A DNA stretch of 64,000 nt, from positions 342,907 to 406,906 of the forward strand of contig CAWBHS010000060.1 of NCBI GenBank assembly GCA_963788655.1, read 5' to 3'. Below the pieces are notes generated by a model that did not search any database, had not been told where the DNA came from, and saw only the letters and a list, made by a program, of their open reading frames with translations. The position numbers were made by a program, and so were the translations under genes. Of the stretch, positions 2,936 through 60,913 are shown in pieces; the stretch's first letter is position 1; every line of letters starts with the position of its first letter. Origin of the DNA: an uncultured Verrucomicrobiae bacterium (GTDB lineage: Bacteria; Verrucomicrobiota; Verrucomicrobiia; Limisphaerales; JAFGQR01).

Positions 2936-2983
2936 GAGTTTACTGGGACCTTCCGTTTGAATCTTCGTTGCCTTTTTGAACCA

Positions 2984-4961
2984 GTAGAGTAGAGAGGAAA
3001 GCACGGAATGAAAGGCCCGAAAACCAATGACCGCCGCTTCCCTCTCCCTCGTCGAACCGGACATGGAGATTTCCCCCATCCGGCTCTCGCCAGTGTCGGC
3101 TCTTCCACAAAGCATTCACAACGCAACCAGTCCCAGATGGTCCAAGTGAGCATACAGGCTGACGCCCTCACGGGCTCGCCAACCCCGTTGGCTGCGACGT
3201 TGCAGATGCCGTCCCAACCGATACCGCACGAAGTGATTGAGCTGACGAAATGCCTTCCGCGGATAGCCCAACTTGAAGTAGTTGGACCAACCCCGCAGGT
3301 GACGGTTCACCCGTCCAATCAACTCCGGCATGGGCGTATGACTCTGATGCGGGTTGATCAACCCTCGCAACGCTTTCCGTTCCCGATCCATCGTTTTGCG
3401 CGACGGTTCCAGGTTCCAGTAACGCTGCGGCCGACCGTATTGATCGCGGTCATACCGAAAGGTGTAGCCCAGGAAATCCAGGCTCTGGCCCGATTGCTTC
3501 AAATCCACGATCCGAGTTTTATCCCGGTTGATTTGCAGGTCCAGCCAGCCTTCCAGTTTGCCCTCGATCCATTCCCGCAACTTCGGACTGATGTAGCGAG
3601 CCATGACCACGAAGTCGTCCGCGTAACGGATCAGCTTCGCTTTGGCCCATTGCGCCGGTCCATCTCCTCGTTGGAAGAGGTGGTCGAACCAGTGCAAATA
3701 GACATTGGCCAGCAAAGGCGAAAGCACTCCACCTTGGGGGGTGCCCCGGTCGTTGCGTCGCACCGTGGGTGGTTGTCCCCCTGGGGGCGGTTCCACCACC
3801 GGCGCCTTGAGCCATTGTCGGATCAGTCCCAGGACCGAACCGTCCACCACGCGCATCCGCACGCAAGCGATCAGCTTATCGTGGGGAATGCTGTCGAAGT
3901 AGCCAGCCAAATCCGCATCATACACCGCCGTTTGACCCTCCTTCAGGTGCTGTTGGATGGCGCGCAAGGCATCGTGCGCCGATCGTCCGGGCCGAAACCC
4001 GTGGGAGCAGTCTTCAAAGTCGGCTTCGAAGATCGGCTCCAGGATCAGCAACACCGCCGCTTGCACCACCCGGTCCCGCACCGTCGGAATGCCCAACGGC
4101 CGCAACTTGCCGTTGGCCTTCGAGATATACACCCGCCGCACCGCTTGGGCACGATAGGTTTTGTCCCTCAGGCTCCGTTCGATCTCGGACAGAAATGCCG
4201 CTTCGCTTTCCGGCGTCGTGGTGATCTGTTCGATGCTCACTCCGTCCACGCCCGGCGCACCGTCGTTGCGCCGCACCGCGGCCCAAGCCGCTTGCAGCAC
4301 GTCGGTTCGATACACCAAAGCGTAGAGACTGTAGAAGCGAAACCGCTTCTGTTGTTTGGCTTTCTGGCCCAGCTTCTGTCTCAGTTCCCGCAGGCTCGGC
4401 GGCAGGATCGCTTCCCGGAAGGAAAGTTCCTCCACCGCTTCTTCTGTTGTAGGAATGAACTCCATCCCAATCAGCTCCGGATTCCTCTGACTCGGCTTGA
4501 CTCTGGCCAGGGCTCCTTGGCTCCCTGCCAACTTGATCGGCAGATCGACGCTACTATGAGCCCATCCGACGCCGCGATTCGGCCCCACCAGCGGTTATGG
4601 CTTCCCGCCAGGGGTTGTCCTGCGTTACAGGCCAGGACTCCGAACCGGGCCTCCCAAGTTCCCAGTGGTTCTTTCTGCGCGCGCTGTCTCCTCTCACCCC
4701 GGGGAGTCCGGTCGGTGCATGGGATCGAATCTTCCCGACCGATGCGGGCTTCACCACATCCGGCAGGCTGGCCACTCCCAGTTTTGTGTAACGAGGCCGA
4801 ACCGAGTTCGCGGAACGCTACGGCTCGCGCATTGGCCTTCCCCAGCTTCAACGGGCAGGATCGCTCCCACCCGCTTAAGGGTCGGCTACATGACTCTCGA
4901 CCATTTATCATGGTTAACACGTTGCAGTTAACAAGAACCACCAAGCTTGCTTGGCGCTTTC
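2984..4961 (-). mobile_element. Group II intron (ribozyme plus RT/maturase)
   Basis: On the minus strand, domain V GAGCCGGATGGGGGAAATCTCCATGTCCGGTTC (~3075-3107) is followed by a domain VI hairpin and the 3' end CTACTCTAC (2984). The 5' end reads GAAAGCGCCAAGC (4961). It encloses an RT ORF. Confidence 0.92.
3116..4465 (-). CDS. ltrA: Group II intron reverse transcriptase/maturase, no C-terminal endonuclease domain
   Basis: Motifs [39 protein letters not shown] and RYADD, then maturase X domain LRGWSNYF. The protein ends without an HNH domain. The start at MEFIPT is inferred. Confidence 0.95.
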
Positions 4962-5052
4962 CGAATTGACACTAATTAATGGGATTTCCCAACCGGTGTC
5001 AAAACGCTACTCGGTACCTTGAATTCGTGGTAATTCGTGTAATTAGTGTCTT
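4962..5052. repeat. REP-like palindrome built from (A/C)CAC(G/T)AATT units; intron target
   Basis: gaattgacactaatt (4963-4977) is inverted relative to gaattcgtggtaattcgtgtaattagtgtc (5021-5050). Confidence 0.7.
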
Positions 5053-5110
5053 CACCTTCGTGTCTCAACTCTGCCTTTGCTTCCTGGCGGGAGCCTGCTA
5101 GACATTTCCC

Positions 5111-6478
5111 ATGCAAGCCGTCCTTGATTACCTGAAACAAAACGAGGCCCGATTCGTCCAGGAACTTTGCGAGTATGTGCGGTTTCCCAGCGTGTCCGCG
5201 CAACCGCAGCATCAGAAAGACATGGCCGCCTGCGCCCGCTGGCTGGTACAGCACTGCACTCGGATAGGATTGAAAGCCCGCCTGCAGCCGACTGCGGGAC
5301 ATCCCATCGTGATTGCCAAAACGCCCCGCGCCCGTTCGGCATCGCGTCCGCATTTCCTCGTTTATGGGCATTACGACGTGCAACCGCCGGAGCCGTTTGA
5401 GTTGTGGAAGACTCCGCCATTCGAACCGACCGTGGTGGGCCGCTCGCTTTTCGGCCGTGGCGCCAGCGACAACAAAGGCCAGCACCTGGCCCACTTGAAC
5501 GCCGTCGAAGCGCATCTGCAAACTGGCACTGAGCTGCCCTGCGATCTGACGTTTGTCATCGAGGGCGAAGAAGAAGTCGGCAGCAGTCACCTGGCGGATT
5601 TCTTGCGCCACAATCGAAAGGAGCTGAGTTGCGAAGCCGTGATCATCTCCGACAACGGCATTCCCAGCCGGAAATATCCGGCGTTGACCTACGGGCTGCG
5701 TGGGATCGCTGCCCTGGAAATCGAACTGCGCGGTCCGTCGCGTGATCTGCACTCCGGTATTTTCGGCGGCACGGTGGACAATCCGGCGATGGCGTTGTGT
5801 CAATTGCTGGCCCAGTTGCGCGACCAGAACGGGCGCATAGCCGTCCCCGGCTTTTATGACGACGTCAATCCGCTGGTGGCTTACGAGCGCAAACAGTTCG
5901 CCCGCCTGCCCCATAACGATGCGGCCTACCGCAAGTTCCTCGGCGTGCCGAAGTTGTTCGGCGAACGTGGCTACACCGCCATCGAGCAACGTTCGGCCCG
6001 ACCCACCATTGAGATCAATGGTTTGACGAGCGGCTACCAGGGCGAGGGCAGCAAGACCATCGTGCCCGCGTGGGCCCGGGCCAAACTGACGTTCCGCCTT
6101 GTCCCGAACCAGAAGCCGGACAAAATCCTCCGGTTGGTGCGCCAGCACTTGAAGCGGATTTGTCCCCCAACGGTGCGGATGTCGCTGCAATCAGGCCACG
6201 GCGGCGATCCGTATTTGGTGTCACCGACCAGTCCACATTCGCAGGCGGCGCTGCGGGCGTTGAAGTTTGCTTTCGGCTGCGAGCCAGTGCTGATGCGCGA
6301 AGGCGGTTCCATTCCCATCGTCAACGATTTCAAGCGCATCCTGGGCGCCGACACCTTGTTGCTCGGAATGGCCTTGCCCGATGACAATGCCCACTCGCCC
6401 AATGAAAAATTCGACCTCGATTGCTTCGCGTGTGGGATGCGGTTGGGGGCATGTTTGTGGGAGGAAATGGGGCGGTGA
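5111..6478 (+). CDS. M20/M25/M40 family dipeptidase (ArgE/DapE-like)
   Basis: Motifs YGHYDVQP, GRGASDNKG, EGEEEVGS, DLHSG and NAHSPNE. Confidence 0.93.
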   Translation: MQAVLDYLKQNEARFVQELCEYVRFPSVSAQPQHQKDMAACARWLVQHCTRIGLKARLQPTAGHPIVIAKTPRARSASRPHFLVYGHYDVQPPEPFELWKTPPFEPTVVGRSLFGRGASDNKGQHLAHLNAVEAHLQTGTELPCDLTFVIEGEEEVGSSHLADFLRHNRKELSCEAVIISDNGIPSRKYPALTYGLRGIAALEIELRGPSRDLHSGIFGGTVDNPAMALCQLLAQLRDQNGRIAVPGFYDDVNPLVAYERKQFARLPHNDAAYRKFLGVPKLFGERGYTAIEQRSARPTIEINGLTSGYQGEGSKTIVPAWARAKLTFRLVPNQKPDKILRLVRQHLKRICPPTVRMSLQSGHGGDPYLVSPTSPHSQAALRALKFAFGCEPVLMREGGSIPIVNDFKRILGADTLLLGMALPDDNAHSPNEKFDLDCFACGMRLGACLWEEMGR

Positions 6479-6690
6479 AGGGTTGAAGCGTTGAAGAGTT
6501 TAAGTGGGTGGACCGCCTGGTGTTAATCGCGAGGCATGGGGAGGACAGGCGCCTCGCCTGTCAACCGGTGCGCCTCGCACCGGCAGTGTTTGGAGGACGG
6601 CTCTCGATTCATTTAGCGCCCGGCGACATTCGAGTCAACGGCGGGGCGCCGTTGACAGCGCCCGGGGCGGGCGCGCTCCCCGGAAGCGAC
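6477..6690. repeat. Intergenic REP-like repeats between convergent genes
   Basis: gaagggttgaagcgttga recurs at ~14275. There is a hairpin ggacaggcgcctcgcctgtc. The segment gcgcccggggcgggcgcgctccc is the reverse complement of the motif at ~22527 and ~26817. Confidence 0.6.
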
Positions 6691-6696
6691 GAACCT

Positions 6697-7272
6697 TCAC
6701 CGCAATTCCCAGTTGGCGAGTTCTTCTTTGAGCCGTTCCATCGGCAAGCCGACCACGTTGGTGTAAGAGCCGTGAATGTTTTTCACGATTTCATCGCCTT
6801 CTTCCTGGATGCCATACGCCCCGGCTTTGTCGAGCGGGTTTACTTTGGCGAGATACCGGCGGATTTGATCCAGGTGCAAATGGCGGAAGGTGACCGTGGT
6901 GCTGACGGCGAACAGTTGCTGGCGATGTTTCCGCAAGTAAATGAGGCAAACGCCGGTGACAACTTCATGGGTGCGCCCCTGGAGTTTGGTTAGCATCTGC
7001 TGCGCCTCGTCCAGGTTTTTTGGTTTACCGAAGATCGTGCGGCCCAGGCAAACAATCGTGTCCGCGGCCAGCACCAGGGCATCCGGATGCTTTTTGGCGA
7101 CGGCCCGGCCTTTCCGGTAGGCGTTGATTTGAGCGGTTTCGTGCGGGGTGAGGTGCTCGGGTTGGACCTCTGTGACGCGCGTGGACAGCGTGGCAAACTC
7201 GAAGCCTGCCTCCCGCAACAAGTCCACCCTCCGGGGCGAAGCCGAAGCCAGCATTAATGGAGGCAAGTTCAT
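6697..7272 (-). CDS. maf: Maf family nucleotide pyrophosphatase
   Basis: Motifs LASASPRR, LAADTIV, FGKP, DKAGAYGIQ and YTNVVGLP. Confidence 0.95.
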   Translation of the reverse strand: MNLPPLMLASASPRRVDLLREAGFEFATLSTRVTEVQPEHLTPHETAQINAYRKGRAVAKKHPDALVLAADTIVCLGRTIFGKPKNLDEAQQMLTKLQGRTHEVVTGVCLIYLRKHRQQLFAVSTTVTFRHLHLDQIRRYLAKVNPLDKAGAYGIQEEGDEIVKNIHGSYTNVVGLPMERLKEELANWELR

Positions 7273-7558
7273 AACTGATTCCTTTTGGCCGGTGCCGCTG
7301 GTTTCATTTCGAGTCCGTTCGTTTGCATCCGTCATCAATTGTCAGTTCACGACTCCGCTGCCACCACCGTCACTTGCTGAATCAAAGGCTACCAGAAAGC
7401 GGGCGGGAAGTCGAGCCGCGCCCGCGGTTGCGCTCAAAGCTTGCCAGTGGGAGCCGCTTTGTTTAATTTCCGCGGCATTAATCATGTGGCGTGATGCAAC
7501 ACCAGAACTCTTTTGTCCGTTTTCCGGTTAAATCCTGAACCTCAATACCCTTCTTACC

Positions 7559-9103
7559 ATGAATACCGAAATGCGCGTGCGGTTGTCCCTGATGATGTTT
7601 CTGGAATACTTCATTTGGAGTGCCTGGTACGTCACCATGGGCCCTTACCTTGGCGGCACTCTCAATTTCAGCGGCACAGAAATCGGCTATGCCTACAGCG
7701 CCACCGCGCTGGCGGCGATGATCTCCCCGTTCTTTGTGGGCATGATTGCCGACCGGTTCTTTGCCACCGAAAAAGTGCTGGCGGTGCTGCACATTCTGGG
7801 CGGACTGCTGATCTTCGGGGCCGCCCAGGCCAAGACCTTTGGCGTCTTTTTCCCGTTCCTGATCGCCCATACCCTTTGTTACATGCCCACGCTGGCGTTG
7901 ACCAATTCGATCTCGTTCAACCAGATGACCAATACCGGCAAGGAGTTTCCCAGCATTCGCGTCCTGGGCACGATCAGTTGGATTTGCGCCGGCTTGACAG
8001 TTGGCCTGTTGGGCAACAAGGCCATCACTACGCCGATGCCATTCGTGATCGCCGCCGGGGTGTCCATTCTGATGGGCCTATACTGTTTAACCCTGCCCCA
8101 CACGCCGCCAAAAGCCACGGGCCGGGTCACCGCCCGCGATGTGCTCGGATTGGATACGTTGCAGTTGATGCGGGAACGCTCGTTCGCCATCTTCATCGTC
8201 AGCGCGTTTTTGATCTGCATTCCGCTCACGTTTTACTTCAGTTTCACACCGTCCTTCCTTGGCGACCAGAACGTGAGTAACATTCCCGGCAAGATGACCC
8301 TGGGGCAGGCTTCGGAAATCTTCTTCATGCTGGTGATGCCGTTCTTCTTTGCGCGCCTCGGCGTCAAATGGATGCTGATCGTCGGCATGCTCTCCTGGAG
8401 CGTGCGGTACACCCTGTTCATTCTGGGTTATAACGGCGCGCTGGTCTGGCCGTTGTATTTGGGCATCGTCCTGCACGGCGTGTGTTACGACTTCTTCTTT
8501 GTCACGGCCTATATTTATGTCGATCAGAAAGCCAGCGAAGCCATGCGCGCCAAGGCGCAGGGATTTATCGCGTTTGTCACGCTGGGCGCCGGCATGTTCG
8601 TGGGCGCCACGCTTTCCGGGTGGGTGGTGAATGCCTACAGCTTTCCGAACGTCACGCCAGACAAATACAAGACCGTGACCGACTCTGCCGAATGGACCGC
8701 CGGCAATTTCGCGAAATGGGAGGCCGCGAACCAACCGGTTTTGGGTCAGGTGGTCTATCTGGTGGCCCCGACCAACACGGCGAACACGGTTTGGGTGGCC
8801 CGGTCAAACGGCAAGCTCGAAGTAACCCTCGAAAAACCCGATACCACCCAGGCGGCGGAAGTGGACCTGAAGAAACTACTGTCCTTCCCCGAGCGACCCG
8901 CGGCTATTGTGGAGGCTTACCAGCAAGAAGGAGGAGTGTTTAAGCCGGCCGAGCAATTCGCGGGCAAACCCCTGACCGCCTTGAGCAAGCCCATGCCTTG
9001 GTGGAACTCCATTTGGATGATCCCGGCGATTGGCGCTTTTATCATCATGGTGTTGTTTGGCCTCTTCTTCCAATACCAGCATGTAAAACCAAATGCAGCT
9101 TAA
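7559..9103 (+). CDS. MFS nucleoside:H+ symporter (NupG/XapB family) with an extra soluble insert
   Basis: Motifs RLSLMMFLEYFIW, IADRFF, FPSIRVLGTISW, GQASEIFFML and LHGVCYDFFFV. Confidence 0.9.
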   Translation: MNTEMRVRLSLMMFLEYFIWSAWYVTMGPYLGGTLNFSGTEIGYAYSATALAAMISPFFVGMIADRFFATEKVLAVLHILGGLLIFGAAQAKTFGVFFPFLIAHTLCYMPTLALTNSISFNQMTNTGKEFPSIRVLGTISWICAGLTVGLLGNKAITTPMPFVIAAGVSILMGLYCLTLPHTPPKATGRVTARDVLGLDTLQLMRERSFAIFIVSAFLICIPLTFYFSFTPSFLGDQNVSNIPGKMTLGQASEIFFMLVMPFFFARLGVKWMLIVGMLSWSVRYTLFILGYNGALVWPLYLGIVLHGVCYDFFFVTAYIYVDQKASEAMRAKAQGFIAFVTLGAGMFVGATLSGWVVNAYSFPNVTPDKYKTVTDSAEWTAGNFAKWEAANQPVLGQVVYLVAPTNTANTVWVARSNGKLEVTLEKPDTTQAAEVDLKKLLSFPERPAAIVEAYQQEGGVFKPAEQFAGKPLTALSKPMPWWNSIWMIPAIGAFIIMVLFGLFFQYQHVKPNAA

Positions 9104-54172: not shown

Positions 54173-55189
54173 GGGGTCAGTCCCGCTAATTGGTAGTCAC
54201 CGGTTTTCTTGGGCACTACGCAAGCAATAGGTCACCATGCTGGTACTGCCCATGGCCAGCCGCTGTGCGATCCAACTCAACGTCATCGTGGTTTCCCGGC
54301 GCAGCCGCAGCGCCATCGCCACTTTTCCCACATCGCCTTTGCGCCGGATCGTCAATTCAGCTTCATCCCATCCTAATCGCTGCAATTCCCCCTGTACGAT
54401 GCGCTCCGCGATGACCACCGCCGATTCCTGACGTTCCTCTCCTCCGTGATGCGCGCCCAAGCCACCGGCCATTTGCGCCAACAATTCCTCCCGAAACTGC
54501 GAATCCCCAAGGCACCATCCGTGCCGCACTTCATTGAATTCTGCCCCGGATTCCGTCGCGCGTCGTGACTCCAACGCTTGTTCGAGCCGACGCCGGCCAG
54601 CAGCGCTATCCTGCGGAATCCGATACTCGCCAAGCAAACGATCCACTCGCAGCCACGGCCATCGTCGTGAGGGCGGTTTCAAGTATTCCGGCCAACTGCT
54701 CCAGCCATACGTCCGCTAACGCCTGCTCCGGCTTCACCAGACTTGGCCCGCGCCGGATTCAAATGCACGTAGTCACAAACCGTCTTCAAATACCCGTTGC
54801 CGCTTCCGTCCACGATCAACGCCTTGTAACGGCCGCTGAACAAATGCCCGAAAACTTTGTGCCGCCGGTTGAACCGCCCCGTGTAGGTTCCCAGAAACCA
54901 TTTCATCCCCGCCACCAAGTCGCCGTCGCGGCGTCTCCACCACCAGATGAAAATGATTGGGCATCAGACAAAGCGCATGCACTTGCCAGCCCGCCTTGCG
55001 CGCAGGCCTCACCCAGCGTGCTCACGAACCGCTGCCGGTCCTCATCATCCTTGACGATCGGCTCGCGCCGATCGCCCCGATTCATCACATGATAAATCGC
55101 CCCGGGATATTCCACTCTGAGCTTGCGTGCCATGATGGGTGGCAGGATGTCGCAATCCAATTGTATTGTCAATTACCGGGACTGACCCC
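54173..55189 (-). mobile_element. RAYT/Y1 transposase element bounded by 20-bp inverted repeats
   Basis: ggggtcagtcccgctaattg (54173-92) matches the reverse complement of 55170-89 at 19/20 positions. TTGACA overlaps the upstream IR. Confidence 0.8.
54197..55133 (-). CDS. RAYT-like Y1 transposase with C-terminal HTH (several frameshifts)
   Basis: Motifs MARKLRVEYPGAIYHVMNRG, MPNHFHLVVETP, GHLFSGRYK, YVHLNP and LRRETTMTLSWIAQRLAMG. Confidence 0.85.
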
Positions 55190-60826: not shown

Positions 60827-60913
60827 TGGTACCGATGGAGGGGCTCGAACCCCCACTCCCTCGCGGGAACCAGATTTTCAGTCTAGCGCGTCTGCCAATT
60901 CCGCCACATCGGC
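60827..60913 (-). tRNA. Class II tRNA with Leu-type body; anticodon reads GAA (Phe)
   Basis: Acceptor stem GCCGATG/CATCGGT plus ACCA; D-arm GGCGGAATTGGCAGACGCG; anticodon arm CTAGA-CTGAAAA-TCTGG; long variable arm; T-loop TTCGAGC. Confidence 0.93.

Follow-up and report, generated by a model that had tools for sequence, protein, structure and literature searches.

We analysed a stretch of 64,000 nucleotides (nt) from an uncultured Verrucomicrobiae bacterium (positions 342,907 to 406,906 of contig CAWBHS010000060.1, assembly GCA_963788655.1), hereafter called the window, focusing on a group II intron that lies near its start and does not begin with the usual GUGYG. The intron carries an open reading frame (ORF) for a reverse transcriptase (RT)/maturase and sits in a small cluster of short repeats. 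The gene of a Y1 transposase, similar to the REP-associated tyrosine transposases (RAYTs; REP, repetitive extragenic palindrome), stops 49 nt from the intron's 3' end, on the opposite strand. The coordinates of the features are reported in Table 1.

Table 1. Features of the intron locus in the window (a caret marks a splice junction; DV and DVI, domains V and VI; IBS, intron-binding site; EBS, exon-binding site; A1, alignment of intron copies; aa, amino acids).
Feature	Position	Strand	Evidence or detail
Complete group II intron, 1978 nt	4961..2984	minus	junction inspection, Rfam, copy comparison
Non-canonical 5' terminus GAAAGCG	4955..4961	minus	copy comparison
Domain I core, Rfam group-II-D1D4-6 (RF02005)	4923-4687	minus	59.8 bits (cut-off 49), E = 1e-15
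alpha (GGUCGA)	4897..4902	minus	pairs with alpha' in 97.4% of cells
EBS2 (ACAC)	4786..4789	minus	A1 columns 190-193
EBS1 loop (CGGAU)	4758..4762	minus	A1 columns 218-222
alpha' (UCGAUC), in the large terminal loop of the DId3 stem-loop	4723..4728	minus	stem CGGUCGG/CCGACCG
RT/maturase ORF (domain IV), 450 aa, YADD present	4468-3116	minus	RVT_1 1.2e-32, GIIM 1.2e-13
DV-DVI, Rfam Intron_gpII (RF00029)	3088-2984	minus	47.2 bits (cut-off 40)
Domain V, 33 nt, AGC triad, 2-nt bulge, 5-nt loop GAAAU	3054..3086	minus	Rfam and folds
Long domain VI with A2990, the seventh nt counted from the 3' end, bulged	2984..3050	minus	folds
IBS1 (ATTCG), final 5 nt of the 5' exon	4962..4966	minus	5 contiguous bp with EBS1, one G.U
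IBS2 (GTGT)	4969..4972	minus	pairs with EBS2 ACAC
Proximal repeat units AATTAGTG and AATTCG(^TG), where 2983-2982 complete the latter	4962..4977	minus	
Three inverted units (CACTAATT, CACGAATT, CACGAATT), lying upstream of the proximal ones by 39 nt	5022..5050	minus	pair I2
3' exon start (TGGTTC), +1 to +3 YGG	2978..2983	minus	3' junction comparison
RAYT-like Y1 (IS200-like) transposase gene, 334 aa	1931..2935	plus	Pfam Y1_Tnp 1.1e-11

The domain I core was recognised by a more sensitive Rfam mode, having been missed by the whole-window run at gathering thresholds. In the ORF, RVT_1 and GIIM were the sole domain matches, with no HNH match, and the protein scored 381.9 bits against TIGR04416 (cut-off 300). 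As merely 20 aa lie beyond the GIIM maturase domain, we classified it as an RT/maturase without an endonuclease (En) domain. The RNA outside the ORF amounts to 625 nt (1978 minus 1353). In both the minimum free energy (MFE) and the alignment folds, a 2-nt bulge separates the two helices of domain V, the lower of which contains the AGC, and the register with the 5-nt loop was retained because pair 20-30 varies as GC:7, CG:2 and UG:1. In domain VI, A2990 was unpaired, with 3 bp below it, in both the MFE fold and RNAalifold.

On the minus strand, the sequence across the 5' junction (4962^4961) reads ...gtcaattcg^GAAAGCGCCAAG... and that across the 3' junction (2984^2983) reads ...CTCTACTCTAC^tggttc. 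The intron ends in ..UAC, thus with the AY expected at a group II 3' boundary, and lacks the GUGYG of the 5' boundary. Since every other group II feature tested was present, we filed the element as a group II intron variant. Once 2984-4961 is excised, the exons join as aattcg^tggt, which is complementary to the accacgaatt unit at 5031-5022. The hexamer TGGTTC that opens the 3' exon recurs inside the intron (4935-4940, minus strand; intron nt 22-27), just past the first stem, and is conserved there in most copies; this recurrence may be due to chance.

The self-comparison of the window found the intron in a single copy. Then, the RT was used in one scan of genome contigs, which returned 78 loci (each designated by L and a number), mostly from Verrucomicrobiota metagenome-assembled genomes. 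In the comparison of 5' ends, 25 of the 27 rows begin with GAAAGCGCCAAG, preceded by unrelated sequence and diverging exactly at the first G, while the remaining two, L015 and L055, read ...cttctg^GUGCGCC. Overall, 26 copies (the window and 25 loci), distributed among 15 assemblies and all differently flanked, share the GAAAGCG start (GAAAGCGCC), which is present in 25/26 rows of alignment A1. At the other end, 26/27 locus rows and the window finish with CTACTCTAC. Once L024 had been dropped for its low-complexity sequence at a contig end, the first three exon positions were YGG in 25 of 27 3' junctions (26 locus rows and the window), the exceptions being L016 (cgt) and L068 (tcc).

Among the 21 copies with both ends present, 19 measure 1965-1978 nt, and L016 and L051 are shorter. 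L051 holds two shortened copies, at 3843-5415 and about 6237-7745, roughly 0.8 kb apart. Near-identical introns with different flanks were found within single genomes (four copies in OY760937, seven in JAOSKK), a distribution that indicates recent mobility, and the lineage is apparently active. A blastn search of the first 520 nt of the intron against plasmids gave no match. With this many independent copies, the GAAAGCG start is evidently no sequencing error. The preliminary description had proposed a group II intron with these exact boundaries, its GAAAGCG 5' end, the re-creation of a repeat unit on excision and a position outside class C; Rfam, the ORF domains and the copy comparison agree on the first, the 26 copies bear out the second (with a net 2 nt more than in GUGCG relatives), the sequence of the rejoined exons matches the third, and the AGC triad and a covarying EBS2 support the fourth.

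The insertion sites share a linear motif, in which IBS2 is followed after 1-2 nt by IBS1 and then by YGG across the junction, at the end of two or three tandem repeats of 9-10 nt. In the consensus of the occupied sites, one unit (TYYGYG) stands at about -24, a second (TYYG.G) at about -14, and a third, ATCYG^CGGT, at the site itself. The guides follow these exons from copy to copy. Indeed, there were on average 4.84 contiguous EBS1 base pairs between introns and their own exons versus 2.91 in mismatched combinations, and 3.84 versus 3.24 for EBS2; none of 2000 permutations reached the observed total. The 25 copies comprise 14 guide types. Across A1, IBS1-EBS1 was paired in 92.3% of cases, with three pairs changed on both sides, and fell to 28-46% when the partner was slid. 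For EBS2, too, there is covariation among the copies, with two registers that differ by 1 nt. The EBS1/IBS1 pairing that the preliminary description had put forward as a check is thus found both in the window and across the family. All this suggests that the family inserts after the last tandem repeat unit, which it reads through the covarying EBS2 and EBS1 pairings.

In the 575,086 nt of loci we counted 34 two-unit arrays, against 3.5 (maximum 6) in shuffled sequences, an enrichment of about 10-fold. The unit sequence varies by genome, and EBS1 and EBS2 track it. As a third unit lies beyond IBS2, the periodicity must be the host's own and not merely a footprint of intron recognition. Pairs of arrays occur in divergent, convergent and direct orientation. 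The ORF context around 21 insertion sites was noisy, in high-GC DNA, and the terminator and promoter scans gave counts no higher than the shuffles. In the window, a search for the CACGAATT unit with up to one mismatch found no enrichment (58 matches, 62 expected); four of the 58 cluster at 4970-5048.

Uninterrupted 9-10-nt arrays ending in ATYYG-YGGTT, often followed by a run of A, were also seen in loci of Lentisphaerota, Cloacimonadota and Verrucomicrobiota (L035 690-790 and 2680-2730, L065 about 3350, L006 1670-1930, L016 2850-3420). One of those in L035 comes directly after a terminator-like hairpin on the opposite strand.

The position of the window array beside the Y1 transposase gene raises the question of whether the arrays are true REPs of a RAYT-like transposase, so that the intron would home to REPs in the strict sense. 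The gene, 49 nt away from the target, reaches 59.4 bits against the NCBIfam model of the REP-associated tyrosine transposase, and a table in PMC1525189 lists insertion sequence (IS) elements and a few group II introns located at REPs. However, this score is below the 80-bit cut-off of the model, repeat units were found only 3' of the gene and none on the other side of ORF 1931-2935, and the array units are tandem 9-10-mers rather than single palindromes of 20-40 nt. Moreover, the 64 kb contain one repeat cluster only. A tblastn search with the Y1_Tnp protein found no homologue in the flanks of any of the 78 loci, which is not decisive, because REPs are dispersed while RAYT genes are single-copy. 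On balance, we consider strict REP homing unlikely. A second Y1_Tnp-like gene, of another subfamily, lies at about 54200-55135 of the window (minus strand); it is split over at least two frames, and is thus probably a pseudogene.

A related and still less likely explanation, which we regard as doubtful, is that, like class C introns, the intron targets a hairpin in the DNA (a REP or a terminator-like stem-loop), with the window palindrome as the homing signal. The palindrome is real but modest: its 22-nt arms (4968-4989 and 5029-5050) are 77% complementary, and it is one of 130 inverted pairs in 4 kb. In the rejoined window site a 12-bp stem is predicted (5051-5040 with 4979-4968), which ends 6 nt before the site, and the fold has z = -2.1 over 30 shuffles. 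L016 likewise lies within a long inverted array (z = -2.2), divergent array pairs occur in L001, L006, L019 and L067 too, and distant Thermodesulfobacteriota relatives follow terminator-like hairpins in 5/7 copies. Yet only three of 20 rejoined sites have a fold z of -2 or lower, and in L010 the hairpin is far upstream of the site; with no unusual folding at the other 17, hairpin recognition is not the rule of the family. The choice of site is explained by the covariation of EBS1 and EBS2, and in L001 and L004 the neighbouring arrays are direct, not inverted. The inverted arrangement next to the RAYT-like gene is a local feature of the window. Of the REP-like palindrome described earlier, the palindrome stands, while the target shared by the family is the linear motif at tandem-repeat ends; hairpin or REP targeting as the homing principle is not supported by the 3/20 sites, nor by the flanks of the 78 loci with their lack of Y1_Tnp homologues.

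Homing to array ends leaves the question of which side of the junction owns the first two letters, GA. Were they exonic, the intron would start with AAGCG in the canonical register and every target would carry GA by chance. A MAFFT alignment does set AAGCG column for column against the GUGCG of L015, and, GA being invariant, the divergence of the flanks cannot by itself place it. We thus searched the loci for uninterrupted repeat ends, and obtained 17 candidate empty sites reading ATYYG^YGG (continuing as YGGTT), none with GA. Two are paralogues of occupied sites: the empty site at L067 minus 5974 is identical to the occupied L031 of the same genome over 20/20 nt of the 3' flank, and matches its 5' flank save for one extra repeat unit; that at L021 +1827 resembles the occupied L021 site. 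Within the repeat unit, too, ATYYG continues as YG and not as GA. Furthermore, the partner of the G at exon position -1, immediately 5' of GAAAGCG, is invariably the 5'-most C of EBS1, just as the equivalent position in the canonical L015 pairs with the G immediately 5' of GUGCG, and EBS1 is preceded on its 5' side by (U/C)G-C/U, where an exonic GA would require UC for pairing. On the empty sites, the repeat unit and the EBS1 register, GA is assigned to the intron, and an exonic GA appears very improbable. The comparison of other copies and empty sites, proposed in the preliminary description, has in this way fixed the boundaries. That the odd 5' end is damage in a decaying or mis-assembled intron, as the single copy in the window and the truncated relatives L011, L032, L055, L051 and L016 might suggest, is hardly credible given the same 5' end in 15 assemblies, the intact ORF, the full length and the several near-identical copies per genome.

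Once GA is placed within the intron, its origin can be considered against the canonical relatives, whose 5' ends were typed by inspection. Starts of the GUGCGCC or GUGCGUC type, directly followed by the first stem, were found in Thermodesulfobacteriota L041-47, L018/L039, L027, L052/53 and L069. The canonical sisters (L015/L055, L017/L018/L039, L027, L052/53, L041-47) share with the window intron 56-77% RT identity, the 3' end CTCTACTCTAC, the first stem and GYG..NTYYG-type 5' exons, and differ in starting with GUGCGCC or GUGCGUC instead of GAAAGCG. The preliminary description had parsed the terminus as a GA extension plus AAGCG. The net gain of 2 nt holds, while this parsing is just one alignment, and that of G-U-GCGCC with G-AAA-GCGCC, in which G1 is kept and U2 replaced by AAA, is equally allowed. 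We prefer the latter reading, because position 1 stays G. With a unit beginning G-AAA-GCG, the splice site would lie 7 nt, and not 5 nt, before the first domain I stem. In the RT trees, the GAAAGCG rows fall in one clade (SH-aLRT, the Shimodaira-Hasegawa-like approximate likelihood ratio test, 96% and 97%) together with four 5'-truncated copies and L015, and the sisters of this clade are all GUGCG.

Other relatives gave observations of their own. In Lentisphaerota (L030, L033-L038, L040; 5' ends near 3424, 2923, 787 and 464) GUUAAG, GUUACG or GUUAUG stands in place of GUGYG at the intron start, and the distance to the first stem is the customary 5 nt; the wider clade thus contains another 5' end that departs from the canonical one. 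In Thermodesulfobacteriota L041-L047 (about 3390-3420), five of seven copies lie about 10 nt past a GC-rich terminator-like hairpin, a class-C-like placement although the GUGCG start is canonical. The Cloacimonadales relatives were considered as a second case of a 2-nt extension (GG+GUGCG) and rejected: their EBS1 (CCCAGA) pairs with TCTGGG, hence their 5' ends are canonical. A search of the loci for Cloacimonadales empty sites found nothing usable.

Class C introns carry a CGC triad in domain V. They resemble the window intron in being En-less and in inserting in intergenic DNA near repeated or structured motifs (terminators and attC sites), and differ from it in the AGC triad, in the covarying EBS2 and in the hairpins, found here at just 3/20 sites; a 4-bp EBS1 without EBS2 is reported for them in PMC4024640. 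A better fit is class E/F (IIB-like, En-less), with introns such as those studied in PMC3753933. That source gives as IIE/IIF traits an alpha' at the end of the DId3 stem-loop, a 5-nt domain V loop and a small size (450-700 nt of RNA), and as a IIF trait long domain VI stems. The window intron shares the lack of En, the 625 nt of RNA, the presence of EBS1 and EBS2, the 5-nt domain V loop, the terminal-loop alpha' in DId3 and, as in IIF, a long domain VI with a bulged A; its 5' end, GAAAGCG and not GUGYG, sets it apart. On these structural features, the intron fits a class E/F-like assignment. Class F is described as poorly defined or disputed in PMC3552965, where some new varieties stand without predicted boundaries.

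Shifted 5' splice sites have precedents. In C.te.I1 of Clostridium tetani the splice site lies 8 nt upstream of GUGYG, and in fungal mitochondrial rRNA introns 1-33 nt upstream (PMC4024640, PMC4424553, and Li et al. 2011 as cited there); as far as these accounts go, such introns are ORF-less, without EBS2 or branch A, and not retromobile. The likeness is a splice site upstream of the usual register, set by IBS1-EBS1. Unlike the window intron, however, they keep GUGYG; here the shift is 2 nt and the GU itself is altered, while EBS2, the branch A, the RT and multi-copy spread are retained. PMC4028801 mentions insertions at the 5' end for CL1 introns and extensions at the 3' end for class B. The open-access literature searched contained no account of introns that start with GAAAGCG, nor of such a repeat target.

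Taken together, the results make it quite probable that this is a retromobile, En-less group II intron from an IIB-like (class E/F-like) clade of Verrucomicrobiota with a remodelled 5' junction, which homes to the ends of tandem-repeat arrays. The boundaries, their conservation, the covariation and the multi-copy spread come directly from the comparisons above. Several points weigh against this reading. Splicing at the GAAAGCG junction and lariat formation are deduced from DNA boundaries only. For EBS2, two registers are needed, and the single one tested was just 57.9% paired; in L001 and L049 an A.C mismatch at EBS1 position 3 leaves only 2 contiguous bp. An additional G at the L014 junction moves the register by 1. 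With a single cluster in the window, the term dispersed repeat rests on the other genomes. The canonical L015 is nested inside the GAAAGCG clade, on a long branch and with 83-92% support, thus the change may have reverted or arisen twice; constraining the GAAAGCG rows as one clade costs 1.63 log-likelihood units (p = 0.465 in the approximately unbiased test, p-AU), so a single origin is not rejected by a test which, being compatible with it, does not establish it. In the first RT tree, moreover, rows L022, L031, L033, L034 and L060 had to be disregarded, as their ORFs had been wrongly extracted.

Elsewhere in the window, the first 939 nt (plus strand) belong to the gene of an RHS repeat-associated core protein that runs in from beyond the window start, so that its C-terminal part lies inside; small ORFs follow. 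At 60827-60913 (minus strand) ARAGORN called a tRNA-Phe(GAA) of 87 nt, whose body is nevertheless of class II: the variable arm is long, the D arm looks Leu-like, the discriminator is A73 and the CCA is encoded. Such a long-arm tRNA with a Phe anticodon might reflect dual identity or altered UUY decoding.

On the proposed mechanism, the RT/maturase would assist the splicing of the RNA, with the bulged A of domain VI as the branch point. As a lariat ribonucleoprotein, the intron would then reverse-splice into DNA that pairs with EBS2 (exon -11 to -7, GYGY-type) and EBS1 (exon -5 to -1, ATYYG) and continues with YGG. Suitable sites would be the ends of two or three tandem 9-10-nt repeats scattered through intergenic DNA. 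As there is no En domain, the primers of complementary DNA synthesis would, if other En-less introns are a guide, probably be nascent strands at replication forks. More tentatively, and as a possibility that we hold below even chances, the G-AAA-GCG clade could have lengthened the distance between scissile phosphate and epsilon/lambda nucleotides by 2 nt and yet still branch and retrohome, with guides that track species-specific tandem 9-10-nt arrays in Verrucomicrobiota, Lentisphaerota and Cloacimonadota, arrays that may correspond to the REPs of RAYT-like transposases.

Pipelines that look for intron boundaries make use of the GUGYG 5' end, which is regarded as near-universal (PMC4028801, PMC4424553). 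The documented exceptions are degenerate introns: they carry no ORF, their branch site has been lost and they are not retromobile. Searches based on the consensus would presumably misplace GAAAGCG 5' ends by 2 nt. The GAAAGCG lineage, which has kept its RT, EBS2 and branch A and reached many copies, offers a natural test of what the catalytic core can accommodate from the splice site to the epsilon/lambda contacts, and its covarying guide loops, together with the host-specific arrays, provide a ready system for studying the co-evolution of introns and their targets.

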